A DNA stretch of 64,000 bases from NCBI GenBank assembly GCA_050633305.1, contig JBOEGF010000043.1:96001-160000 (forward strand), read 5' to 3'. Numbering within the stretch: the first letter of the stretch is position 1; each line of letters begins with the position of its first letter. The notes under the pieces were generated by a model. That model worked only from the letters and a program-made list of their open reading frames with translations, did no database searches and had not been told where the DNA came from. Both the position numbers and the translations under genes were made by a program. This DNA is from Nannocystales bacterium (lineage in GTDB: Bacteria; Myxococcota_A; Polyangia; Nannocystales; Nannocystaceae). Of the stretch, positions 12,142 through 42,996 are shown one piece after another.

Positions 12142-13938
12142 GTGTCCTCGAAGGGCCCCCCCGCCTGGCTGTATCTGCTGCTGGCCACCGCCGCAGTGAT
12201 CGGGGCGTGGATTCTCGCGTGGGAAGGCCCAACACGCCGTCGCCCGGGGGAGGAGACGCGGTCGCCGAGGGAGGACACCACGACATCTCAGGCGCCCAAG
12301 CGCTCAGGCGGCTGGGCGCCACGACCGCTGCCCGCCGAGCGCGCTCCGACGCCGCTGGGCTGCACCCCCCAAGAGGACACCATCTGCGTTCGCGGGGACG
12401 CGTGGTGGATCGACAGCTGTGGCAACCCACATGAGAAGGCGGAGGAGTGCGGCGTCACGCGTTGTGAAGACGGGGCCTGCGTAGGTCCGGACCTCGCCTG
12501 TGCACAGATCGGGGGCGGTCGATGTGAAGGCGGCGTGGCTGTAGGCTGCGCTGCTGGGCGTCTGTATCGAAGAGACTGCGCCGAGGTGGGGCGGCAGTGC
12601 GTGCTCACCGAAGAGGGGCCCGCCTGTGGTCCGGCGGAAGGGACGCCCTGTGTTCTCGGGGTACCCCCACGGTGCGACGGTGACACGCTTGTCTCCTGCG
12701 CGGACGGGCTGCAGCAGCGGCTCGACTGCGCATCGGTCGGTGCGCGTTGCCAGCCACTACGCGGTGGCTGGGCGGACGCTTGTGTTCGTCCGAGCGCGCC
12801 TCCCCAGCGCTTGGGATGCTCGGCCTGCGGGTGCGAGCCGGACAATGAGGCGGACGAGCTGTGCAACGGTCGCGATGACGACGGAGATGGGTTCGTTGAC
12901 GAGGGCGCGGACTGTGGCGTGGTCGATCTTGTTGCGGTGGTGGTCGCGGACTCGGCGGGCAACACCGACTACACCGATGCCGACCTCACAACAGAGCTGG
13001 ACCGCATCAACGGATACTTCGCTCGCGACGACGACCTCGGGCTGTCGTTTCGCTGGGCGGACACGGTGTACCTCGATGCCGAGGCGTGGCTCGAGATCGA
13101 TGACAGCGAGCTCCAGGAGGTGCTGACCGGGAGCGCGCACGTCCGCCAGCGCGACAGCTTCTACATTCCGATCGTGTTCACGCGGGAGCTTCTCGTGGAT
13201 GAGGTCCCGCGTCCGGGATTGGCCACGCCGCCCAACGGGATCTGTGGAGGTGTTCGCCGCGTTCAGGGCCGTCAACCACTCGTCGGCGGGGTGATCATCG
13301 CCAAGCAGCGGTGGGAGAGCACCGTGGCCCATGAGATCGGGCACTACCTCGGGCTGTGCCATACCCACGCGCCCACGACGGATGCCGTCTCAGAGCTCGA
13401 TGAGCAAGGAGAGCCGTGCACCGAGCCCTGTGCGCTGCTCGGTGATGGAGTCTGCGATACGCCGCCCGATCCGGGCCCGGTGTCCTGCGAGGTTGTGGAG
13501 GGTTGTGGCCTGTCTTGTGAAGGCGGGGAGGCGGCCGATGCGACGAACGTCATGGCGTACTACCCGTCGTGCCGCACCCAGTTCACCCCCGAGCAGGCGG
13601 CGACCGTACGCGAGGGGCTCTCGTGGCGGCGCGGTTGGTACGCGTGCGTGTTTGAGCCGTGTCCGTGCCGTCCCTCCGAAGGGGACTGCGCCGAAGGCAT
13701 GACGTGTTCGCCGTTCGACGCCGACGACGGGGGACAGCGTTGGCAGTGTCGGCTCGACGGACCTGCGCCTCCGGGAGCCCCGTGCGGGTCCGCTGATGCC
13801 TGCGATGGTGGGCTGTGCGTGCGCCAAGCAGACGGAGGCTCGACGTGCGCCCGGATGTGCAACGCCCGAACACCTGGCTGCGAGTGTGCGTCGCTTCCGG
13901 GCATCGCGCCTTCTTTGTGTGTCGACGACTTGGAGTGA
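12142..13938 (+). CDS. Membrane-anchored metzincin (M43/pappalysin-like) zinc metalloprotease with Cys-rich repeats
   Basis: HEIGHYLGLCHTH zinc motif, GDGVCDTPPD, NVM Met-turn, myxococcal ELCNGRDDDGDGFVDEG repeat, N-terminal TM helix. Confidence 0.85.
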   Translation: MSSKGPPAWLYLLLATAAVIGAWILAWEGPTRRRPGEETRSPREDTTTSQAPKRSGGWAPRPLPAERAPTPLGCTPQEDTICVRGDAWWIDSCGNPHEKAEECGVTRCEDGACVGPDLACAQIGGGRCEGGVAVGCAAGRLYRRDCAEVGRQCVLTEEGPACGPAEGTPCVLGVPPRCDGDTLVSCADGLQQRLDCASVGARCQPLRGGWADACVRPSAPPQRLGCSACGCEPDNEADELCNGRDDDGDGFVDEGADCGVVDLVAVVVADSAGNTDYTDADLTTELDRINGYFARDDDLGLSFRWADTVYLDAEAWLEIDDSELQEVLTGSAHVRQRDSFYIPIVFTRELLVDEVPRPGLATPPNGICGGVRRVQGRQPLVGGVIIAKQRWESTVAHEIGHYLGLCHTHAPTTDAVSELDEQGEPCTEPCALLGDGVCDTPPDPGPVSCEVVEGCGLSCEGGEAADATNVMAYYPSCRTQFTPEQAATVREGLSWRRGWYACVFEPCPCRPSEGDCAEGMTCSPFDADDGGQRWQCRLDGPAPPGAPCGSADACDGGLCVRQADGGSTCARMCNARTPGCECASLPGIAPSLCVDDLE

Positions 13939-13982
13939 GTGCCGACCTCCGACTCAGACGCGGCCGTCGGGGCGAAGGGCCC

Positions 13983-15344
13983 TCACTGCGACAGCAGGAC
14001 GTTGGCCGCGTAGGTGTCCTCGCCCTGGGCCGAGATGGTCACGATGTCGAGGGAACCGTTGCCATCGAGGTCGGTGATCTCGGTCTGCCAGGTGGGAATC
14101 GCTTGCCCCTCGATCCCGGTCGCCTCGGCGGTGATCTCGTACGAGACGCCTCCGCTGAAGCTCGGGCCGAGTCCGACGTTGACGATGGCGAGGTCGGTGC
14201 GACGCAGCCCGATGTCGGGGGTGCCGTCTCCGTCGAAGTCGGCGATCGCGTAGCCGGTGATCCGTTCGCCGGCTTCGATCACCGGTCCATCTTGCAGGCC
14301 GCCGCTGCCGTCCTGATTGAAGACGTGCAGGGTCGCGCCGTAGGTGTTGGACATCGGATCCCCGGTGCTCGTGAGCACCAGGTCTCCGCGACCGTCGGCG
14401 TCGACGTCCTCGATACGGGCCGAGGCGGGCGCGAGATCGCCTCCGAGTTCCAGGGTGGAACTCGATGCAAAGCTTCCTGCGTTGTTGGTGAACACGACGA
14501 CTTCGAGGCCGTTGTCTCCCTCTCGAACCACGAGCAGCTCGTCCATGCCATCGCCGGTGGTGTCGGTGGCCAGGACCGTCCAGGGTCCCGAGGGCGCCCC
14601 GGTTACGGCGGCGTCTTGGATTCCACCGCAATCCTGGGCGGTGCAGCTGTGGAGTTCGATGGTGTTCAGGGTCGAGGCGTCGGGTGCGAAGGCGAGGTCG
14701 GTGGAGCCGTCCCCGTCGAAGTCGCCGAACCACGGACCGGCCGGGGGCGACCCGGTGGGTTCGTAGAACCGACGAAGCTCCGAGCCCTGCATCCACCACA
14801 CATCGACCTGGACATCGCCGAGGGCACCGTAGGTTCCCTGCAGGAACACGTTGCGGACTTCGCTCGAGCGGGAGCCGGCCGGACGGGGGCGCGAGAGGGC
14901 AACTGGGCGACCGTTGGCCATGGGCTCACTTCCAAAGCTCAGCGCCACGCCGCCATCGAAGGTCCCGCTGTTGTTGGTGAACAGCACGGCTTCGTCAGCT
15001 TCGTCAGGGCCGGTCTCTTCGCTGCGGGCCAGCATGTCGACATCGCCGTCCCCGTCGAAGTCGCCGAAGGTGACCTCCGTTGAGGGGACCGGGACGAGGG
15101 CCTCGACCATGCACGCACCCTCGCCTTGCTGAACGACGCAGTTACCGGGGACGACTCCGGTGCTCGGGGTATCGGTGGACGATCCTGAGTCCGCGTCGGT
15201 GTCGGTGTCGCCTGCGGTTGTGCTCGTGGCGTCGTCGGTGGCCGAGGCCTCCCCAGTGCCACTGTCCTCGGCTGAGGCGTCGTCGCCACATCCCAGGGTG
15301 AGCCAAGGGCACAACAGCGCAGCGCATGCGAGCGGGCGGAGCAT
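13983..15344 (-). CDS. FG-GAP/VCBS repeat lipoprotein
   Basis: Lipobox TLGC, S/T/D linker, about 6 DxDGDGxxD repeats. Confidence 0.85.
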   Translation of the reverse strand: MLRPLACAALLCPWLTLGCGDDASAEDSGTGEASATDDATSTTAGDTDTDADSGSSTDTPSTGVVPGNCVVQQGEGACMVEALVPVPSTEVTFGDFDGDGDVDMLARSEETGPDEADEAVLFTNNSGTFDGGVALSFGSEPMANGRPVALSRPRPAGSRSSEVRNVFLQGTYGALGDVQVDVWWMQGSELRRFYEPTGSPPAGPWFGDFDGDGSTDLAFAPDASTLNTIELHSCTAQDCGGIQDAAVTGAPSGPWTVLATDTTGDGMDELLVVREGDNGLEVVVFTNNAGSFASSSTLELGGDLAPASARIEDVDADGRGDLVLTSTGDPMSNTYGATLHVFNQDGSGGLQDGPVIEAGERITGYAIADFDGDGTPDIGLRRTDLAIVNVGLGPSFSGGVSYEITAEATGIEGQAIPTWQTEITDLDGNGSLDIVTISAQGEDTYAANVLLSQ

Positions 15345-15398
15345 CGCGGGGACTGTAGCAGCCCGGCCCGTCGGTCGGGTTGCGATGCCGCGCTCTGC

Positions 15399-16136
15399 TC
15401 AGAACCAGACCGAGAAGCCGGCCTGTGCGGCGAGATTGATGAAATCGCCGTCTTTGGAGTAGTCCTCCTCGATGATGACGTCGCCGACCTCACTCCGGCC
15501 CTTGGTATGCGGCGCTGCGTAGTCGAAGGTCAGGGCCAGGTCGATGGAGAACGCGTCGATGAGGAAAATGTGCGCGCCTCCGCCGACGCCGACGATGGGG
15601 TGGATCTCACTGAAGCTGTAGAGTTGCTCGGGGTCCGTTTCGATGCGAGTCGAACCAGCGCTGCCCCCGAAGCCGAATCGGCCCTCGATGAAGGGCCGGG
15701 CTCGCTTGCCGGGCAGAAAGAGGTAGCGGAAGTACGGCACGAGCTGACCGCTGACGGCGGTCGTTCGGGACGGGACGGGCCCACCAGGACCACCGTCGTC
15801 TTCGTCTCCTTCCGTATCGAGGTTGAACGCAAAGCGGCCACCCACAATCGCATTCCCGCCCAGGAACACGTAGCCAAACCCAAGTGACCACACCGGGGGC
15901 ACGAGGAGTCGGTCCGCGCCCGTCGGCCGGCCAAAGCCAAACCCGAGCCGGTTGGTGTTCTCACCGTCACCGTCGGGGTTGAAGTGCGAGAACGAAAGCA
16001 CGTCGAGCTCGCCGTGGAAGCGGAACCGCTTGCCAGTGTTGGTGGGCTCGGCTGCGGATGCACCACTGCTCGCGAAGGCAACCGCCGCAGCGGCGAGCGC
16101 GGGAAGGGCCAGGGCACGAAGCGTTCCAGGGATCAT
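15399..16136 (-). CDS. Outer membrane beta-barrel protein
   Basis: Signal peptide, amphipathic beta strands, C-terminal GFSVWF BAM signal. Confidence 0.8.
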   Translation of the reverse strand: MIPGTLRALALPALAAAAVAFASSGASAAEPTNTGKRFRFHGELDVLSFSHFNPDGDGENTNRLGFGFGRPTGADRLLVPPVWSLGFGYVFLGGNAIVGGRFAFNLDTEGDEDDGGPGGPVPSRTTAVSGQLVPYFRYLFLPGKRARPFIEGRFGFGGSAGSTRIETDPEQLYSFSEIHPIVGVGGGAHIFLIDAFSIDLALTFDYAAPHTKGRSEVGDVIIEEDYSKDGDFINLAAQAGFSVWF

Positions 16137-16302: not shown

Positions 16303-17019
16303 ATGAGCGGGCTGCGGAACTTCGAAGAGATGTGGGATGCGTATCCCAACCCCGGTGGCACTGCGGCCGCAGCCAAGGCTGCGATCGGTGGAGGCGCGGA
16401 TCGGGACTGGATCCGCAACACGTGCGTGATTCGAATCAGCCGATCGTTCAACGCATCGGGCAACCCGATCCCCGACCGGCGCGACGATGGGCTGGCGACG
16501 GTGGTGGGCGCGGATGGACGGCACTACGCGCTGCGGGTGCACGAGTTCCGCCGATACTTGCAGCGAACCTACGGTGCCCCCGACTTGACGCATACCTACG
16601 CCGACGGTGAGGGCGGTCCGGTTCCCAACGCGTTCTTCGGAACGCGCGGCGTGGTGGTGTTTGACGTCGATATCTGGAGCGATGCGAGCGGCCACATCGA
16701 CCTGTGGAACCGCGATCGCTGCCGTCATGCGGCGTACTACGACGTCGCGGCCAAGGTGATGCTGTGGAAGGTCGACGAGGTTCGCACTGGTCCGCGCCTG
16801 GAAGGCTCGGTGGGGAGCCGCGGGGAGAACCGGCGCGATGACGTGTTGCTGGTGCAGACGTTGTTGGCGGAGCAAGGCGTGGACCCTGGCCCCATCGATG
16901 GGCTGATTGGGCGCAAGACGATTGCGGCGATCCGCGAGTTCCAGCGTGGGTTCATGCGCCGTGCGGACGGCCGGGTCGACCCCAACGGGCGTACGTTCCG
17001 CGAACTACTCGGACTCTGA
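16303..17019 (+). CDS. Tae4-like peptidoglycan amidase fused to a C-terminal peptidoglycan-binding domain
   Basis: NTCVIRISRSFN (catalytic Cys), RGVVVF, WSDASGHIDLWN (catalytic His). C-terminal DVLLVQTLL...DGLIGRKTIAAIREFQ...DGRVDPNGRT (PG_binding_1). AAGGAG RBS before ATG 16303. Confidence 0.82.
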   Translation: MSGLRNFEEMWDAYPNPGGTAAAAKAAIGGGADRDWIRNTCVIRISRSFNASGNPIPDRRDDGLATVVGADGRHYALRVHEFRRYLQRTYGAPDLTHTYADGEGGPVPNAFFGTRGVVVFDVDIWSDASGHIDLWNRDRCRHAAYYDVAAKVMLWKVDEVRTGPRLEGSVGSRGENRRDDVLLVQTLLAEQGVDPGPIDGLIGRKTIAAIREFQRGFMRRADGRVDPNGRTFRELLGL

Positions 17020-34700: not shown

Positions 34701-34734
34701 CAAAAAAACCGGGGACGCGTGCCGCTGGTGCCCC
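34701..34734 (-). terminator. Probable Rho-independent terminator
   Basis: On the minus strand, GGGGCAC...GTCCCC-GG followed by T7, immediately after the stop of 34734-35471. Confidence 0.55.
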
Positions 34735-35471
34735 TACTTCTTCGCCGCGGCGTCGGGTTTCTTGCCGCTCTTGCCGGCGCCACACCCACCGCACTCGGTG
34801 TGGTCGTGCTTGTTCATGTTGCCGCAGTACTGGCACTTCCAGTCCGCGACGGCCTGCTTGGCGTCCTTTTCGGCCTTGGTCTTGTCGTCTTTGTCGGCCT
34901 TGGCCTTGCTGTCCTTCTTCGACTGCACGCCGCTGACCTTGTCGAGCGCGCTCTGGGCGGTCTCGAGATCTCCGAGGACCTTCTTCACGATCGCATCGGC
35001 GTCGTTGGGATTCTTGGCACCTTTCTTGAGGGCCTCTTCGGCCCGAGACAAGGCCTTCTCGGCATCCGCGGCCGCAACCTTCGCCCCCTCGCGAATCGAG
35101 GCGTCGGAGGCCTTGGCGGTGACCTCGACCCGGGCCTCGCGGAGCTTCTTGCTGACGGTCTCGACCTTGTCGAGTTCGCGCACGAAGCCCTTCATCAGGG
35201 CGCTGTTTGCCGCGGACAGCTTCTCGATGGCGGCATCGCCCTCGAGCGAGCCCGCGGCCTCATGAATCGGTTTCGCTTCATCGATCCGGGCCTGGAGCGC
35301 GGGTTTGAATCCGGGGTACTTCGCCTGCAAAGACTCGACCTTCTTCAGATTGCTCTTCCAGGCGGCGGTTTGGTTTTCCACCGTCTGTTTGCAGCCCCCG
35401 AAGAAGGCGAACAGGGTGAGCAACAAGAACGGGAGCAGGACAGTCCGGACTGCGGTCACGGCGGCAAGCAT
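34734..35471 (-). CDS. Coiled-coil lipoprotein with C-terminal RanBP2-type zinc ribbon
   Basis: Lipobox FGGC, Lys/Ala-rich helical body, W-K-C-x2-C-x3-N-x6-C-x2-C. Confidence 0.8.
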   Translation of the reverse strand: MLAAVTAVRTVLLPFLLLTLFAFFGGCKQTVENQTAAWKSNLKKVESLQAKYPGFKPALQARIDEAKPIHEAAGSLEGDAAIEKLSAANSALMKGFVRELDKVETVSKKLREARVEVTAKASDASIREGAKVAAADAEKALSRAEEALKKGAKNPNDADAIVKKVLGDLETAQSALDKVSGVQSKKDSKAKADKDDKTKAEKDAKQAVADWKCQYCGNMNKHDHTECGGCGAGKSGKKPDAAAKK

Positions 35472-35539: not shown

Positions 35540-38467
35540 ATGGTGCACGCGGTCGCGAGACGCTTCGCCTGTGAGGAACTCGTCCGCTTGCGGCGGGCGG
35601 ACGAACAGCGTCGGTACCTGGCCTCGCAGCGAAGCGCACGGATCGATCCCAACCCGCATCAGATCGAGGCGGTCATCTTCGCGCTTCAGAGGATCCCCAA
35701 GGGCGGTTGCATCCTTGCCGACGAGGTGGGGTTGGGGAAGACGATCGAGGCTGGCCTCACGCTGTCCCAGCTGCTGGCCGAGGGAGCCTCACGCATCCTG
35801 TTGCTGACACCCAAACCACTGCTTGGGCAATGGAGAGACGAACTGCTCGCGTTGTTCGGCATCACCGCTCGAGAGGGAGCCTCGGAGGAGACCGGCTTTG
35901 AGGGTCCAGGGGTGTTCATCGCTGGTCGGGAGTACGCGGGCTCCGAGGTGGGAGCCGCCGCGATCGGGGGGAGCGGTAAGTTCGACCTGTGCGTCATCGA
36001 TGAGGCGCATGAGATCTTCGCGGGGATCTATCGGCGCTACGATCGACAAGGCGGTCTTCGAGATGGGTCGCGCTACGCCCGAACCGCGGCCCGGGTGAAG
36101 CACGCGTTGCTCGGCACGCCCATGTTGCTGCTCACCGCGACACCCATCCAAAACACGCTCACCGAGATGTGGGGCCTGGTTCAATACGTCGAACCGACCG
36201 GCACCCTGCTGGGGGACCTGGGCACGTTTCGCTCGGTGTTTTGCGATGGGGATGATCGCCGGATTCGGCCCGGGCAGGATGACGAGCTGAAACGACGGCT
36301 CGCAACGGTCTGCCAGCGAACGCTACGCCGCCAAGCGCAGACGTTCATGGCCAAAGCGTTCACCCAGCGGACGGCGCGGTTGTTCGAGTACTCGATGTCT
36401 CCGGACGAGGCGCAGCTGTATGAGGACGTGACGCAGTATCTGCTCGATCCCAAGACGCTCGCGTTTCGTGGAACCCACCGCCGACTATTGCTGATCGGCT
36501 TTCATCGCCGCATGGGGAGCTCGGTGGTGGCGCTCGCCGACTCGCTTCAGGCGGTGGCCGATCGTTTGCGGCGGAAGCTCGAGGGGAGCGGCGACACGCT
36601 TCGGCTCTTCGAAGCCGATCTCGACGATGAGGATGCACCAGCGGCCCCCCGCGGTGATGACGAGGAGGTTCCCGAGCATCCGGAGCCCGAGCTCGTCGCC
36701 GAGATGAAGCGGGTTCAGGGGCTCGCGGACCTCGCCAGGAGTCTGCCGGTCGACAGTAAGGCGGAGCAGCTGAGGGTCGCGGTGGAACGCGCGCTGACTC
36801 GGTCCGACGGCAGTGGAAAGGTGGTCATCTTCACCGAAGCCCTCTCCACGCAGACGTACATCAAGCGGGTGCTGGTGGAGGGACGCATCGTCGCACCCGA
36901 TGCCGTGACGATGTTCCGAGGGCAGAACACCGGGCCCGAGGTGGCCGTCGCCCTCCAGCGGTGGGAGGGCGAGGTCGGCTCGCGAATGCCCAAGGACGCC
37001 CAGCCATCGCGTTCGGTGGCGGTCCGGCTGGCCCTGGTCCACGAGTTTGCGACGAAGACCGCGGTGTTCATTGCGACCGAAGCTGGGGCGAAAGGGCTGA
37101 ACCTGCAGTTCTGTGACACGGTGATCAACTACGACCTTCCGTGGAACCCGCAGCGCATCGAGCAGCGAATCGGTCGGTGCCATCGCTATGGCCAAACGCG
37201 CGACGTCACCGTCATCAACTTCATCAACCGCGACAACGAAGCGCAGCGGCTCACCTTCGACATCCTCTCCCGCAAGCTCGAGCTGTTTGGCACCGTTTTG
37301 GATGCCTCGGACGCGGTCCTTCATCAGGCGGTGGCGCCGACATCGACCGCGTTGGTCGGTGCGCTTGCCAGCGACTTCGAGGCCCAACTGGCGGACGTCT
37401 ACGACAAGGCTCGCTCGGCCGAAGAAATCGCCGCAGGCATGGCGGAGCTCGGAGCGCGCGTCGGAGATGCCAAGGACGACTATGAGCAGACACACGCACG
37501 AACGGCGGGGCTGATCGAGACCCGGTTCGACGCGACGGTGCGGGCGGCGTTCAAGGACATCGAAGAGGAACTCCCCGAGGCATTGGCGGCCTTGGATGCA
37601 GAGCTGGAGGGCGTCCTCGTCCGGTTCCTGGACGCGGTTGGGATCCCGTACACGACCGATCGGGATGACGCTGGTCTGACGGTTGAGGTCTCCGCGCATC
37701 CGAAGCTTCCTCCTGCACTGCGGGAGGGCGTCCGGATCCGCGTGGGCGACGGGGTGCCCGAGCAGGGGGAGCCGTTGCACGTCGGCCATGCCCTCATCCG
37801 AGCAGCGCTCGAGGAATCACGGGCAGCCACTGTCGGGCGTCAACGGGTGTCGATCCGTGCTTCGAACCTCGAGGGGGATGTGGCGGCAAAACGAGGGACG
37901 ACGGGCCGGATCAGTGTGGTGCGGATGCAGGCGCTTGGCTTCGAACCGGTGACCGAGCTGCTGCCCGTGGTTGTGCTCGACGACGGGCCGCAGCCGTTCA
38001 TGGGTGCTCGGGCGCGTGGCTGGGTGCTCGCGGCGATCGCCGAGGCAGACCCCCACGTCGGCCTTTCGCTCGACACGCTCGAGGATGCGGCTCAGGAAGC
38101 GATCTTCGTTGCGGGGGGAGATCTCGAGGCTCGGGAGCACCTGCGCTTCGAAGAGACGATGGCGCAGATTGAGCGCTCGGTCGACGACCGTGTCTTGGCA
38201 CTGCGCCGGATCCGTCACGAGGTCCAGGGTCGTCACGCCGAGGCTCTGGGTCGTCGCGACGCGGCAGTGGGGCCAGGCCCACGGACCCGGGCCGAGCAGG
38301 AGCTGGCCGCGATCGAAACGGAACTCGAGGGGCTCGACGCACAGGCCCTGCGCCTGCTCACACGCGACGACGACGAGTACCGGTCGTGGCGATCACGCGC
38401 CTACGTCCGGCGTTACACTCCGCCCTCCTACGAACGCATCCTCGATGTGGAGTTCGTGCTCGTATGA
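35540..38467 (+). CDS. SNF2/RapA-like superfamily 2 helicase/translocase
   Basis: PHQ Q-motif, LADEVGLGKT, IDEAH, LTATP, VVIFTE, EAGAKGLNLQ, NYDLPWNPQRIEQRIGRCHRYGQ. Long C-terminal coiled coil. Confidence 0.94.
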   Translation: MVHAVARRFACEELVRLRRADEQRRYLASQRSARIDPNPHQIEAVIFALQRIPKGGCILADEVGLGKTIEAGLTLSQLLAEGASRILLLTPKPLLGQWRDELLALFGITAREGASEETGFEGPGVFIAGREYAGSEVGAAAIGGSGKFDLCVIDEAHEIFAGIYRRYDRQGGLRDGSRYARTAARVKHALLGTPMLLLTATPIQNTLTEMWGLVQYVEPTGTLLGDLGTFRSVFCDGDDRRIRPGQDDELKRRLATVCQRTLRRQAQTFMAKAFTQRTARLFEYSMSPDEAQLYEDVTQYLLDPKTLAFRGTHRRLLLIGFHRRMGSSVVALADSLQAVADRLRRKLEGSGDTLRLFEADLDDEDAPAAPRGDDEEVPEHPEPELVAEMKRVQGLADLARSLPVDSKAEQLRVAVERALTRSDGSGKVVIFTEALSTQTYIKRVLVEGRIVAPDAVTMFRGQNTGPEVAVALQRWEGEVGSRMPKDAQPSRSVAVRLALVHEFATKTAVFIATEAGAKGLNLQFCDTVINYDLPWNPQRIEQRIGRCHRYGQTRDVTVINFINRDNEAQRLTFDILSRKLELFGTVLDASDAVLHQAVAPTSTALVGALASDFEAQLADVYDKARSAEEIAAGMAELGARVGDAKDDYEQTHARTAGLIETRFDATVRAAFKDIEEELPEALAALDAELEGVLVRFLDAVGIPYTTDRDDAGLTVEVSAHPKLPPALREGVRIRVGDGVPEQGEPLHVGHALIRAALEESRAATVGRQRVSIRASNLEGDVAAKRGTTGRISVVRMQALGFEPVTELLPVVVLDDGPQPFMGARARGWVLAAIAEADPHVGLSLDTLEDAAQEAIFVAGGDLEAREHLRFEETMAQIERSVDDRVLALRRIRHEVQGRHAEALGRRDAAVGPGPRTRAEQELAAIETELEGLDAQALRLLTRDDDEYRSWRSRAYVRRYTPPSYERILDVEFVLV

Positions 38468-39624
38468 GCCAAGGTGATCCCGACGTGGCGCTCAAGCTCC
38501 TGCATACCGCCGACTGGCACCTGGGAATGCGCTTCCCCAGCTTCTCTGAGGAGCATCAACGAACTCTGATGCGGGCGCGGATGGACGTGCTCGATAGCGT
38601 GTTTGGGGCGGCCGAATCCGCGGGAGTCGACGCTGTCTTGTGCGCGGGCGACCTGTTCGATGATCCGCTTCCCGCGGACCCATGGTGGCAGGGCTTGCTC
38701 GAGCGACTCCACGCTCGGGACTGGTCCGGGCGCCCGGTGTTCTTGTTGCCCGGCAACCACGACCCGCTGACAAACAAGAGCGTGTGGTCCGAAGACCATC
38801 CGTTCCGGCGCGGTCTGCCCGATGGGGTCCACGTCGTCGACCGGGATGACTTCGAGGCTCCACTGTCCGACTGTGGGGTGCTGCTCGCGGCACCGTGTCG
38901 CACCCGGGCCGGCCAGAGCGGCCTGTGGAAGAACCTGCCGCGCCGCGCAGCGGATGACGAGCGCATCCGCGTGGGCATGATTCACGGGCAGACCACCGAT
39001 ATCGAGGGGTTCCAAAACACCTTCCCGATTCCGGCCGAGGCCGCTGAAGATCGCGGTCTCGACTACCTCGCGATTGGCGACACGCACGCGTTTCGCGAGG
39101 TGCCTCCGGGGGCTGCGGTGCCGACGGTCTACCCGAGCGCACCCGAGCCCACGAAGTTCGGGGAGCAGGATGCCGGCTATGTGGCGCTGGTGTTTTTCCC
39201 GCGGGATGGGAGGCGGGCGCTGCTTCGTAAGGAGCGAGTCGGACGTTGGCGTTGGGTCGAGCGGACGGTCAAGTCCGTGGCCGATCTTCGGGCCCTCGCA
39301 GCCGAGGGCGACCTGGCCACCAAGGTGATGCGGCTTCACGTGCAACTCGATGCGACACCGCCGGAGTACGAAGCCGTCGAGGCTTTGCTGCGGACGCTGG
39401 GGGGCACCGATGCGACACATGGCCGGGTTGGGGTGCTTCAGGTCGATCGCTCGCGGCTGCGGCTGCGGACCGACGACCTCGAGGCGGCCTTCGATGGACT
39501 GCCAGATGAACTCGGGCAGGTCGTCTCGCGGCTTCAGGCTCGGGCGGAGTCCGGCGGAGAGGACGCGGAAGCAGCGAAGCGGGCACTGTACCACCTGTAT
39601 CGCTCGGTCCGGGGGAACGACTGA
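38464..39624 (+). CDS. Mre11/SbcD (YhaO-like) metallophosphoesterase nuclease
   Basis: HTADWHLG, AGDLFD, PGNHD, IHG, GDTH, YPSAPEP. ATGA overlap with the helicase stop. Confidence 0.92.
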   Translation: MSQGDPDVALKLLHTADWHLGMRFPSFSEEHQRTLMRARMDVLDSVFGAAESAGVDAVLCAGDLFDDPLPADPWWQGLLERLHARDWSGRPVFLLPGNHDPLTNKSVWSEDHPFRRGLPDGVHVVDRDDFEAPLSDCGVLLAAPCRTRAGQSGLWKNLPRRAADDERIRVGMIHGQTTDIEGFQNTFPIPAEAAEDRGLDYLAIGDTHAFREVPPGAAVPTVYPSAPEPTKFGEQDAGYVALVFFPRDGRRALLRKERVGRWRWVERTVKSVADLRALAAEGDLATKVMRLHVQLDATPPEYEAVEALLRTLGGTDATHGRVGVLQVDRSRLRLRTDDLEAAFDGLPDELGQVVSRLQARAESGGEDAEAAKRALYHLYRSVRGND

Positions 39625-42600
39625 TGCGTTTGCGAACCCTCGAGGTCTCGGACTTCGGCGCGGTGGAGCAGGCCAAGGTGTCCTTTGAGGATGGGCTCAA
39701 CGTCCTGCACGGGCCCAACGACCTGGGTAAGTCGACACTCGCGGCTGCAATCCGGGCCGCGCTCCTGTTGCAACATGGGTCGAGTGCCGCGCGGCCGTAC
39801 ATCCCGTGGGGAACGACCCGTAAGCCCACCGTCACGCTCGTCTTGGAGATCAAGGGGAGGTGGTGGCGGGTGCACAAAGCCTTCGGCACCAGCTCGGGGG
39901 GGAAGTCCGTGTTGGAGTGGTCGAACGACGGCATGACCTACAGCCTCGAAGAGGAGGGCCGCGGTGTCGACGGCCGCCTGCGCGAGCTGTTGGAGTGGGG
40001 CCTCGCCGCGCCGGGTGGACGGGGTGGATCGCACGGGTTTCCCAAGTCCTTCCTTGCGACGGTGTTGTTGGGCGAGCAGGCGGTGCCGTATCGGTTGCTG
40101 GAGCAGAGCCTCGACAGCGATGCGGAGGACAGCGGCAAGGCGCGACTCGTCGAGGCGCTGCAGGCGATGGCGACTGACCCGCTGTACCAGCAGGTGCTCG
40201 AGCATGCCCAGACTCGGGTGGACGAGGCGTTCACCGCGAAGGGCAAGCGAAGCACCCGGAAAGGGAGTCCATTCGAACGCGTCGGCACCGAGATCAAGCA
40301 GCGGCGAGAGGCGAGCGAAGAGCTGATCTCCGCGGTCGCCGAGAGCGACGCCGTTGTATCGAGGTTGGCCGAGCTTTCGGTGCGTCGAGACACGGCGCTG
40401 GCCGAGCGCGCCCGGATCGCGCAGACGGTCGAGGGCATCGAGGTGGCGCTCGAGGAGGTCCGCATTCGTGTGGGCTTGCAGGCCGAGGTGGATGCTGCGC
40501 GTGGAGCCTTGGCCGAGATCGAGCGTAACGGACAGGAGATTGCGCGTCTGCATGGCGAGCTTCAGTCCGCGAAGGCAGCCGTGCCCAAGGCCGAGGCCGC
40601 GTTGGAAGCGGAGCGGGGCGCGGTGCGAGACGCGGAGGTGGAGTTCGAGCGGGCACGCGCAGCCGCGCAGGCGCTGAGTTCGGGTGAGGACCCGGAGCTT
40701 CGGGCCCAAGCCCAAGCTCGGGCGGAGACGCTGCGGGAGCTGGATGCCGAAGCGGCGACGTTGCAAGCCCGTGAGACGCAGCTGATGCAGTGGCGAGCGG
40801 CGTGTGAGGAGCGGGACCAGACGCTTGCGAAGCAGCAGAAGGCGCTCGATGTGCACACCGCGGCTGTGGAGGCCCAAGCCAAGGCAAGCGCTGCCGCGTC
40901 GGAAGCGGCGGCGGTGCACCGCCGCCGTGCGGACGCCTTGCTGTGGATGCGTGCCGAGGGCCTTCGGCGACGGGTGGAAGGGCTGGTGGGGCGCGAGGCC
41001 GCGGCGAACCAAGCTCGCGAAGAGGCGGACGCCAAACGTGCCGAGGCGGCCGCTCTCGCTGCCAAGCTGGGGACGGACTTTCCCGACAGCGAGACCCGCG
41101 AAACGATGGAAGCCTCGTGGCGAGCGCTGCAGATGCGAGAGGCGGCCCTGCGTGGTGGGGTCCGGGTGGCGTTGGCGTTGTCGCAAGACATCAAGGCGAC
41201 GACGGATGGTGCCGGCCCGAATGCGGTGGCCGCGGATGCCACCATCGATGCGGAACGCGAAGTCGTGCTCGAACTCGGCGCGCTGGGGGAGATGACGGTT
41301 CGCCCGGGTGATCCGAGCGCTCACGCAGCGCTGGAAGAGGCGAGGTCCGCGTGGAGTGTGCACGCGGCACGGCTCGACGCGTTGGGCATTGCATCGGTCG
41401 ATGCGCTCCGGGTGGCCGCCACCGCTCGCGCAGAGGTGCAGCGCGAGCGAGATGCCCGAGCCCAAGAGGCTCAGATGCTGGAGGCGCGCGCGACTCCGGT
41501 GGAGGCCTCCGAGTTGCAGTCGGCGAAGGCCGACCTCGAAGCGGCCGAGCGCGGCCTCGAGAACGTGGAGGATTCGGGATGCAAGGCCGAGGCTGAGGCG
41601 CACGGGGACGACCTCGATGCAGCCGTACGCGAGTCTGAGGCGGATGCCGAGCGTCTGGCTCGGCTCGCAGTGGTCGCTGCAGCCACCGCATCGGAGGCGC
41701 AGACGGAGCGACGCTTGGCCGAAGAGCGGGCCGACGCCGCATCGAAGCTCGAGGCCGCCGCGCGGCTCGATGGAGACGATCCCGTGCGCGCTGCCGAGGC
41801 ACTCCGCACTGCCCTCGATGGCATCGCGCAGCGGCGGTCTGAACTCGATGCGCAGGCGAAGGCGGAGGTCGACGGGATGGCGCAACGGACCGAGGCCGCC
41901 CAGCGGGCGGTGACCGAGGCGGAGTCCGCCCGCCTGGGCGCCACCGAACGCGAAGCGGCCCTCCGACAAACGCTCGACCAGGCTCGAGCGACGCAGACGG
42001 CCGCCGATGCGGCGTTGGCGGTGCGACGAGAGCAGGCGCAACACCACGACGCATTTGCGGCGGCCGAACGAGTCGCGCAAGCGCAGGATGCCCTGGCAGG
42101 GGCTCCGGAGCCGCAGGTGGACACCTCGCAGGAGACGGTCGACGCAGCGCGGACAGCGTTGGTGGTCGCCGAGGAGGCGCTCGAAGACGCGGAGCGGGCC
42201 GTACGCCAGCAGGAAGGTGCGCTACAGCAGGTTGGCGGTCAGGTCGTGCGCGAGAGGTCCCAGATGGCCCGGGAGGCCCTCGAGGATGCGCGGCGTCAGG
42301 AGGCCGAGATCGAGCTCGACTACGACGGGTGGCGGCTGCTGCTCAGCACCCTTCGCGAGGTCGAGAACGAAACGGGCGCCCATCTTGGGCGTTCCCTGGG
42401 CACCGAGGTCGCGACCCGCATGGAGTCCCTCTCCCAGGGCCGCTATCGGGGGGCATCTCTGGGCGCGGACCTGGAGACCGAAGGGGTGGTGACCGAGCAG
42501 GGCGTGCAAGCCCTCGACCGGTTCTCCGAGGGGGTCAAAGAGCAGGTCGCGACGTTGCTGCGGGTGAGCGTCGCCGAGCATCTCGGGACGACGCTGGTGC

Positions 42601-42788
42601 TCGATGACCACCTCGCGCAAACCGACCCCGAGCGCTCGGAGTGGTTTCGCAGACTGCTGCAGGAGAGCGCGGAGTCGATTCAGGTGGTGGTGTTGACGTG
42701 CCGGCCCGAGGACTACGCGGCGGCGGGCGCAGGGGAGGGTGCGGCGACCCATGTCGTGGACCTCTCAACCAGCGTCGTGCGGCGCTAG
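39624..42788 (+). CDS. Rad50/SbcC-like (YhaN/AAA_27) coiled-coil ABC ATPase
   Basis: Walker [10 protein letters not shown], about 700-aa coiled coil, signature-like FSEGVKEQ, Walker B LVLDD, QVVVLTC. TGATG overlap with the nuclease stop. Confidence 0.9.
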
Positions 42789-42996
42789 CAGTCCGTGGTG
42801 AAGCCCGGCGCGGCGGATCACGAAGACGAGTGAAGCGTCGTGTCGGGTTTCACCACGGGCTGCTAGGCGTACGCGGTCTCAGCGGCGCGGACACGTCTCA
42901 TGCGTCGTGCCTATCTCAAGGATTGGCAGACGCTATCGACGGATGATGGATCCGTGTCCACCGGCGTCGCGGCCTCCACTACACTTTGAGTCGGCC

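Follow-up and report, generated by a model that had tools for sequence, protein, structure and literature searches.

We have analysed a 64,000-nucleotide (nt) stretch of DNA from a Nannocystales bacterium (family Nannocystaceae; contig JBOEGF010000043.1, positions 96,001 to 160,000 of the forward strand), hereafter the window, in which three adjacent genes (the trio) encode an SNF2-type motor, an Mre11/SbcD-like nuclease and a Rad50/SbcC-like ATPase. An earlier note on this DNA had described three co-oriented genes joined by ATGA and TGATG overlaps, and the open reading frames (ORFs), their lengths and both overlaps were confirmed in the sequence. The locus contains the following features (aa, amino acids):

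35540-38467, + strand: SNF2 ORF, 975 aa, a RapA/DrmD-group ATPase with Pfam SNF2-rel_dom and Helicase_C
37532-38464, + strand: SNF2 C-terminal domain (about residues 665-975), an alpha+beta region that resembles RapA_C and includes a long helical hairpin
38464-38467, + strand: ATGA stop/start overlap between SNF2 and Mre11, read in the sequence
38464-39624, + strand: Mre11/SbcD-like metallophosphoesterase, 386 aa, Pfam Metallophos
39622-39626, + strand: TGATG stop/start overlap between Mre11 and Rad50, read in the sequence
39624-42788, + strand: Rad50/SbcC-like coiled-coil ABC ATPase, 1054 aa, with an N-terminal Pfam AAA_23/AAA_27/SMC_N match
41073-41423, + strand: beta-rich apex domain of Rad50 (residues about 484-600, strands 513-559), from the secondary structure of the model
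42785-42866, unstranded: imperfect 82-nt hairpin from the Rad50 stop onward, its 37-nt arms being 81% complementary

The SNF2-Mre11 junction overlapped in 20 of the 29 loci measured, which is beyond chance. All three genes were under purifying selection when compared with five close relatives, the ratios of nonsynonymous to synonymous rates (dN/dS) being 0.04-0.12 for SNF2, 0.02-0.11 for Mre11 and 0.11-0.30 for Rad50, and the GC content of the trio, overall and at third codon positions (GC3), was in line with the rest of the genome. The 82-nt hairpin is bounded by CTAG at both ends, with the Rad50 stop codon inside the overlap, and is single copy in the genome (matches of 60 nt or more); it is a possible terminator or RNA stabiliser. 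No sigma-70-like promoter was found here, and terminator-like sites were near chance (7 vs. 4.2 ± 1.9).

The motor had been described as an intact SNF2 translocase, in agreement with its motifs DPNPHQ, ILADEVGLGKTIEAG, DEAH and QRIGRCHRYGQ, which are all present and show little or no variation among 74 homologues. Its best profile matches were DrmD models (NCBIfam NF038318 DrmD_b, 390.5 bits for a cut-off of 950; a second DrmD test, 206.8 vs. 610; PDLC02619 as the best PADLOC match), and it scored 117.4 against the RapA equivalog (cut-off 576) and 49.3 against the ZorD model (cut-off 1500). The AlphaFold2 model had a predicted local distance difference test (pLDDT) value of 80.3, with about 90 in the C-terminal region, and its best fold match was RapA (8T0L, template modelling score 0.55). 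The model starts with three helices followed by the ATPase, the Tudor N-terminal domains of RapA being absent. The C-terminal region resembled RapA_C Atlas clusters with a feature similarity of 0.96, a value from language-model features that is a lead only. The fold searches, here and for Rad50, were made with whole proteins.

The second gene proved to be the five-motif Mre11/SbcD phosphoesterase announced by the earlier note, with DWH, GD, GNHD, HG and, as a refinement, GDTH as motif V, which in canonical Mre11 is GHxH. Residues D17, H19, D63, N98, H99, H174 and H208 were invariant or nearly so in 38 alignment rows, and motif V carries Asp206. The protein scored 55.4 bits against the SbcD model TIGR00619, below its cut-off of 77.65, and no PADLOC model matched it. 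SbcCD/Mre11-Rad50 entries were the best sequence and structure matches of the nuclease-ATPase pair. In the Mre11 tree the trio nucleases formed a clade of their own, apart from the YhaO-type proteins and from a sister clade of Mre11-Rad50 (MR) pairs, which we call the pair type.

The third gene was likewise confirmed as a long coiled-coil ABC ATPase, with the refinement that Walker B reads LDD, that the switch residue is Arg and that no CxxC is present. Its motifs are Walker A GPNDLGKS, signature SEG, Walker B LDDHL and switch TCRP. The LDD was found in 110/110 rows and the replacement of the switch His by Arg in 100/110, while a CxxC zinc hook was found in 0/110 trio Rad50 rows; the canonical SbcC of relatives has the hook sequence CPLC. 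We considered whether the degenerate Walker B and switch are specific to the trio and rejected this, the DD occurring in YhaN-type and pair-type proteins as well and the His being absent from some of the latter. The AlphaFold2 model (pLDDT 84.0) matched best to Thermotoga maritima Rad50 (3qf7, Z 27.1, root-mean-square deviation 4.3, 336 aligned residues), ahead of Lamassu LmuB (Z 19.7); the PADLOC LmuB profile gave 31.8 bits in the Walker A region only, and no NCBIfam SbcC model matched.

A beta-rich domain occupies the position of the Rad50 hook. This apex aligned with the pair-type Rad50s, which are SNF2-free (hhalign probability 97.6%, E 4e-12), and not with seven YhaN/AAA_27-type proteins (0.5%, with a shallow 7-row profile); its Atlas matches were to unnamed clusters only. 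The AAA_27 family matched the trio Rad50 above its gathering score with 28.8 bits over 46 residues of the Walker A region, compared with 139-151 bits for the two YhaN-type proteins of related genomes that were tested. By these scores and by the apex alignment, the trio Rad50 is probably not SbcE proper.

We have then followed the linkage of the three genes with an Mre11 profile search of 251 genomes sampled evenly over the phylum. Trio-type Mre11 gave seven matches in six genomes, and all seven (7/7) kept SNF2 upstream and Rad50 downstream, so that the three-gene order, the conservation of which the earlier note had proposed to check, was retained. In contrast, the 24 pair-type matches had a Rad50-like neighbour in 20 cases and SNF2 in 0/24 (3.5-19 kb of DNA each). 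Each of the three genes formed a trio-specific clade spanning several phyla, with a patchy spread that includes Acidobacteriota, Spirochaetota and Melainabacteria. This supported the conserved three-component unit; unlinked genes in relatives, which would have spoken against it, were not what we found. Apparent Mre11-Rad50 or SNF2-Mre11 fusions (P0101, P0217, P0242, P0303) had junctions that look out of frame and were not used as evidence. No close trio member was present in viral contigs or PLSDB plasmids, where full-length matches were at most about 31% identical, and no RNA holder was listed, which says nothing about expression.

The pair type itself (L176-L199, L208, L209) is a widespread, uncharacterised hookless Mre11-Rad50 with GDxH as motif V and a beta-rich apex. 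The nearest genes of its loci include RecD-like, RecJ, Fpg and GyrA genes; a RecD-like helicase is a neighbour twice (L176, L208) and a type III Res gene precedes one locus (L194). At L138:8897-13797 a pair-type Mre11-Rad50 lies behind a WYL-domain regulator and adjoins a prophage terminase and a DNA methylase. We presume that the pair type is probably the family of Mycobacterium tuberculosis Rv1277-Rv1278. In the available parts of the literature, these two genes are mentioned only in lists (PMC10609372, PMC2587704).

The SNF2 side gave a corresponding picture. Among the best 80 of 593 SNF2 matches, 16 loci were of trio type (12 with downstream Mre11 and Rad50, two at a contig edge and two broken remnants), whereas the remaining 64 had no Mre11, and in 57 of these the SNF2 gene was followed by a gene cluster whose six tested members were type III Mod/Res. 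In a quick-search tree, a branch with a Shimodaira-Hasegawa-like approximate likelihood-ratio test (SH-aLRT) value of 100 separated 33 trio rows from 24 restriction-modification (RM)-linked rows; all trees were quick searches made without bootstrap. The window has no Mod/Res genes and its SNF2 falls outside the RM-linked clade. Hence, the earlier statement that this SNF2 subtype usually sits beside RM genes holds for the sister clade. In some sister loci (L077, L082, L097 at 12750-15890, L038, L052, L057) an ATPase of SMC-like or AAA type, about 1030 or 770-820 aa long and often accompanied by an AIPR gene, stands between SNF2 and methylase; an SNF2 and ABC-ATPase pairing thus recurs in some RM-linked loci.

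The complex modelling suggested by the earlier note was carried out with SNF2 residues 682-975 against Mre11 and the Rad50 head, with Mre11 as a monomer, in a four-chain job. It predicted docking of the SNF2 C-terminal region on Mre11 with a score of 0.74 (runs 0.74, 0.70 and 0.75), compared with 0.00 for the best of three controls. The score mark was reached by 116/157 solved complexes and by 2/215 mismatched pairs, rates that are only approximate for a four-chain job. The runs had at least 66% of contacts in common and the partner pLDDT was at least 76. On the partner side, every confident predicted contact lies on Mre11 (residues 9-54, 242-261, 285-286 and 316-319), facing SNF2 818-893 and 940-962, with the main predicted binding surfaces at Mre11 44-54 and 242-261 and at SNF2 845-893 and 940-962, and the contacts avoid the helices that we take to be the Mre11 dimer surface. 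Recall of a solved complex by the predictor is unlikely, because no entry of the Protein Data Bank (PDB) joining the SNF2 and Mre11/Rad50 families was among the matches listed (for SNF2, the best 60 of 138).

The core predicted contact is Mre11 F244 with SNF2 F856. Position 244 is F or L in 24/28 trio rows and E in 12/19 pair-type rows, and position 856 is F in 25/27 trio rows, whereas F does not rank among the three most frequent residues of the 26 RM-linked rows. R250, D849, R958 and P962 show the same clade-specific pattern, the acidic SNF2 stretch 849-853 and the basic Mre11 positions 247 and 250 are conserved across trio rows, and the Mre11 316-319 insert is absent from pair-type rows. 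The RapA-type C-terminal domain of SNF2 is thus predicted to dock on Mre11, and these alignments suggest that the core interface residues were gained on both sides in the trio clade only.

The distribution of SbcD-like genes was then compared across a sample of 60 genomes of the host family, Nannocystaceae. Trio-type Mre11 was present in 20/60, and none of these (0/20) had another SbcD-like gene, whereas 34 of the 40 non-trio genomes had such a match: 13 carried a canonical gene (scoring over the cut-off), 19 a gene of a third type and two a pair-type gene. The seven third-type loci inspected were YhaN-like in look. Four kinds of MR (canonical SbcCD, YhaN-like, pair and trio) thus showed near-perfect mutual exclusion across the family sample. 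No SbcC match of note was found in the window genome.

In an RpoB tree of 27 rows, ten trio genomes clustered as a single group (SH-aLRT 86). The same nesting recurred in the Mre11 tree, except for the metagenome rows L130 and L131. Because the RpoB group is single and its nesting is repeated, we are dealing with one replacement followed by vertical descent, not with 20 independent cases. The trio was kept in 6/7 genomes of its own genus and in 7/7 of another. Outside the trio, only 1/24 pair-type genomes (18 families) had canonical SbcD, compared with 126/251 in the phylum sample. That the pair type also excludes canonical SbcD suggests, from gene content, that the pair/trio MR family can do the job of SbcCD.

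A replacement of RecBCD/AddAB by the trio was considered and rejected, since RecC was present in 19/20 family trio genomes and in 6/6 congeners. The window genome itself gave no match to RecC or to the PF12705 nuclease, with Ku and RecJ present, and the RecC gap is probably due to assembly incompleteness (92% complete). The family genera g2, g4, g14 and g17 lack RecC and carry AddA-like nucleases.

The surroundings of the window copy were ordinary. Apart from the trio, 48 genes were called in the window, and they belonged to kinase, metabolic, FG-GAP or outer-membrane Pfam families or had no match, the calls being made by a simple ORF caller that is crude in GC-rich DNA. By Pfam, and with many genes lacking any match, none of the 48 belonged to methylase, restriction, integrase, transposase, defence or mobility families, which agreed with the earlier statement that no RM gene is present at this locus; no tRNA was found in the window, and PADLOC gave no match for the three nearest neighbours. 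The upstream neighbour was the same in three of the four congeners having upstream DNA. It is a divergent 245-aa gene (34734-35471, - strand), retained 5' of the trio in three congeners, without Pfam or PADLOC match and with a signal-peptide-like start, a long helical middle and a C-terminal CxxC...CxxC. Elsewhere in the window (16303-17016, + strand), a Tae4-like amidase domain is fused to a peptidoglycan-binding domain, probably forming an antibacterial or cell-wall enzyme, judging by its domains. In one family genome, an Endonuclease V gene lies directly 3' of the trio and co-oriented with it (L115:13157-13684).

Defence genes were near 1/14 family-resident trio loci. Outside the resident lineage, the neighbours of trio copies included Hhe/PDC-S37-like genes (L175, L028, L131), a GajA/OLD-like gene (L022), a type I RM system directly downstream (L035), AbiEii with a type III CRISPR system (L025), GmrSD (L029) and PIN (L032); L028 also has a relaxase and a coupling protein. 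At L173:3-14268 the trio, with a Rad50 of about 1280 aa, comes directly after a type 2 BREX cluster (PglZ, BrxD, BrxHI), 2 bases away. L023, which adjoins a second DrmD-like SNF2, was scored as having no defence context, and the pair-type loci, scanned for nearest genes only, are not a like-for-like control. When the genome had a second SbcD-like gene, the context of the trio was defence or mobile in 7/7 assessable cases, compared with 1-2/7 for the trio alone, a post hoc comparison of small numbers.

The window genome carries a second trio copy (C36:78414-85764, or L117:6414-13764), counted among those outside the resident lineage, with about 51-63% identity in the best segments, in which SNF2 is frameshifted and Mre11 and Rad50 are intact. 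It adjoins an Avs2-like STAND gene (L117:2056-6222, 862 bits) and branches apart from the window copy in the Mre11 tree; on its placement there, it is a separately acquired copy.

The trio was compared with the systems it most resembles. A class I DISARM locus consists of drmA, drmB, drmC and a methyltransferase; the trio motor has DrmD as its best profile match, but stands far below the cut-off, with no drmABC or methylase nearby. The type III RM-linked SNF2s are its sister clade, but the window lacks Mod/Res and the C-terminal surface of the trio SNF2 differs. RapA shares the SNF2 core and the RapA-type C-terminal domains, whereas the trio SNF2 lacks the Tudor N-terminal domains and is nuclease-linked, with no sign of a polymerase link. 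Wadjet consists of JetA, JetB and JetD, and Zorya of ZorA, ZorB and ZorC; no Jet model was among the 25 listed of the 26 PADLOC families matching the ATPase, and the nearest neighbours had no match. The archaeal herA-nurA-mre11-rad50 operon uses HerA, a motor unrelated to SNF2, and eukaryotic Fun30/SMARCAD1 acts with MRX (the Mre11 complex) without an operon or a known direct docking on Mre11; both resemble the trio as motors working with Mre11-Rad50 at DNA ends, by analogy only.

The likeness to SbcCD/Mre11-Rad50 (Escherichia coli, T. maritima, Pyrococcus furiosus) is closer: an Mre11-fold nuclease gene lies directly 5' of a coiled-coil ABC ATPase, the metal/catalytic motifs are intact, the ATPase head is split, the coiled coil is long, and the trio apparently stands in for SbcCD in the host lineage. 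The trio differs by its beta-rich apex in place of a CxxC hook, Walker B DD, switch Arg and GDTH motif V, by falling below the SbcD cut-off and by its coupled SNF2 predicted to bind Mre11. With the pair type it shares a sister nuclease clade, the GDxH motif V, the apex domain and the exclusion of canonical SbcD, but the pair type lacks the linked SNF2, the 316-319 insert and the hydrophobic F244 patch. Bacillus subtilis SbcE-SbcF (YhaN-YhaO) also combines an SMC-like ATPase, which lacks a hook and has a central domain of its own, with an SbcD-like partner, but no SNF2 partner is reported for it in the available part of its description (PMC2811018). The trio further differs from it in its AAA_27 score (in a comparison with YhaN-type proteins of related genomes), in an apex not alignable to the YhaN type and in its separate Mre11 clade. 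Lamassu (LmuABC) likewise has a Rad50-derived end sensor and, in the part of PMC12663957 available, is a precedent for MR parts in immunity. The trio keeps a whole Mre11 instead of LmuC and a swapped effector, its Rad50 has no CxxC, and PADLOC found no LmuA/LmuC beside it (Mre11 and the three nearest neighbours).

In short, the trio fits none of the named systems considered (canonical SbcCD, DISARM, RapA, Lamassu, Wadjet and Zorya), as the earlier note had held. The PADLOC check that it suggested gave no match for the trio, with a DrmD-like motor, nothing for the nuclease and Walker-A-region matches only for the ATPase. A full-text literature search, with most subscription journals and supplements outside its coverage, found no paper describing the combination, and the main texts of PMC12839542 and PMC10853773, as far as available, do not mention Mre11, SbcD or SbcC. 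These loci may still appear in supplementary family tables, for instance among the LmuB homologues of PMC12663957 or in the supplementary data of PMC12839542. What is new here is the predicted SNF2-Mre11 docking with core residues specific to the trio clade, the SbcD-like exclusion in the family together with the RpoB-tree congruence of the trio, and the contrast between a window copy without defence neighbours and the copies outside the lineage, 10/16 of which have them.

We favour, at slightly better than even confidence, a reading in which the trio would be a three-subunit motor-nuclease processing DNA ends and the window copy a resident SbcCD substitute. From the observed anatomy, linkage, clades and distribution and the predicted SNF2-Mre11 contact, we infer its activities, substrate and role as follows. 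As in SbcCD, by analogy, Rad50 would engage a DNA end, a hairpin or an end blocked by protein through its heads and coiled coils, and Mre11 would cut the DNA. Driven by ATP, the Mre11-tethered SNF2 would travel along the duplex or displace bound proteins, letting the nuclease reach, or keep working on, blocked ends. The resident trio may thus clear hairpins and blocked ends for repair, beside RecBCD, and would also damage unprotected linear foreign DNA. The hookless SbcEF of B. subtilis is a double-strand break repair factor according to the part of PMC2811018 available. Repair and defence need not be exclusive, since SbcCD both cleaves blocked ends and hairpins (PMC6265447, in part) and threatens hairpin-ended phage DNA (PMC12624138, in part).

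Several observations weigh against this reading. ATP hydrolysis by Rad50 is doubtful from its motifs, given the DD in Walker B and the Arg in place of the switch His. The predicted interface on Mre11 is less conserved than the whole protein (mean 0.51 vs. 0.64), and that on SNF2 only slightly more than its domain (0.57 vs. 0.51). Most of the family genomes are incomplete metagenome-assembled genomes, the exclusivity within the family represents one evolutionary event, so that a Fisher test overstates it, and the metagenome rows L130 and L131 sit inside the family group of the Mre11 tree. Genes of the SbcCD type can disappear without being replaced (no SbcD-like match in 6/60 family and 73/251 phylum genomes), and outside the family canonical SbcD was present in 6/15 trio genomes. 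The upstream SNF2 was absent in 5/18 full-length metagenome Mre11 matches (at least two of these seem to be the same locus), and in 3/20 host-family genomes the trio is interrupted by other genes (L105, L106, L211). Finally, the SNF2 stems from an RM-linked clade, and 10/16 of the outside copies have defence genes close by.

A rival reading is a dedicated anti-phage/anti-plasmid system, also in the window genome, which we regard as possible, if on the unlikely side. By analogy with LmuB, Rad50 would sense invader ends or hairpins, SNF2, as in DISARM, type III RM-linked and ietHAS operons, would track along the DNA and Mre11 would destroy it. The sister SNF2s ahead of Mod/Res, the defence neighbours of the outside copies and the patchy spread over phyla agree with this, as do the derivation of Lamassu from SbcCD (PMC12663957, in part) and the need for a DrmD-like SNF2 in ietHAS defence (PMC13069673, in part). 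On the other side stand the ordinary neighbours and shared upstream gene of the window copy, its retention in two genera, where it follows the species tree, the absence of close members from viral contigs and PLSDB plasmids, the lack of a PADLOC model for its Mre11 and the link between defence context and the presence of a second MR. Turnover of defence systems is usually faster. Of the alternatives in the earlier proposal of a DNA-repair or anti-mobile-element role, the window copy leans to the resident SbcCD substitute, with defence context found mainly outside the lineage.

It is improbable that the SNF2 is RapA-like, clearing R-loops or RNA polymerase where transcription and replication collide and bringing MR to the resulting breaks, even though RapA structures are the closest folds and tblastn found no other close RapA-like gene in the genome besides the two trio copies. 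To open the polymerase clamp, RapA must touch the beta' zinc-binding domain with its N-terminal domain (bioRxiv 10.1101/2024.09.28.614012, in part), and the trio SNF2 lacks that N-terminal domain; it also scores far below the equivalog cut-off, and its C-terminal architecture is found in defence helicases too, BrxHII among them (PMC12839542, in part). Even less probable is that SNF2 and the MR pair act separately and merely travel or are transcribed together. Pair-type MR is indeed widespread without SNF2, and split loci and SNF2-free copies occur, but both proteins have matching trio-only clades, the junction mostly overlaps, the predicted interface has clade-specific residues on both sides and the split genomes retain all three genes. 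That the trio is a system already described under another name is the most improbable of all, since, although PADLOC-DB dates from 2023 and the literature coverage was partial, no NCBIfam curated cut-off was reached and no title or abstract found describes the combination.

As to origin, sporadic copies, several of them beside defence genes, branch off deeply in the trio trees, with the resident lineage nested among them. This nesting fits, and does not prove, an order in which defence came first and domestication later. Tentatively, and at less than an even chance, an RM-derived SNF2 may have captured a hookless MR through a new Mre11 docking surface, moved across phyla as a defence-island module and then been domesticated in a single myxobacterial lineage, as its sole MR, displacing SbcCD.

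In eukaryotes, SNF2 remodellers help Mre11-Rad50 indirectly, and how Mre11-Rad50 gains access to protein-covered ends and whether it needs a zinc hook are open questions on which the trio bears. If the reading is true, the trio would offer a small, purifiable three-gene model with SNF2 docked on Mre11 and a beta-domain in place of the hook, and the predicted interface names specific residues open to mutation. In one lineage the trio seems to serve as resident repair equipment and elsewhere to ride in defence islands, which makes it a test of traffic between immunity and repair. If the domestication scenario is true, this family would possess a bacterial MR complex with a built-in subunit of chromatin-remodeller type, acquired along a path from defence to repair that would be the reverse of that taken by Lamassu.

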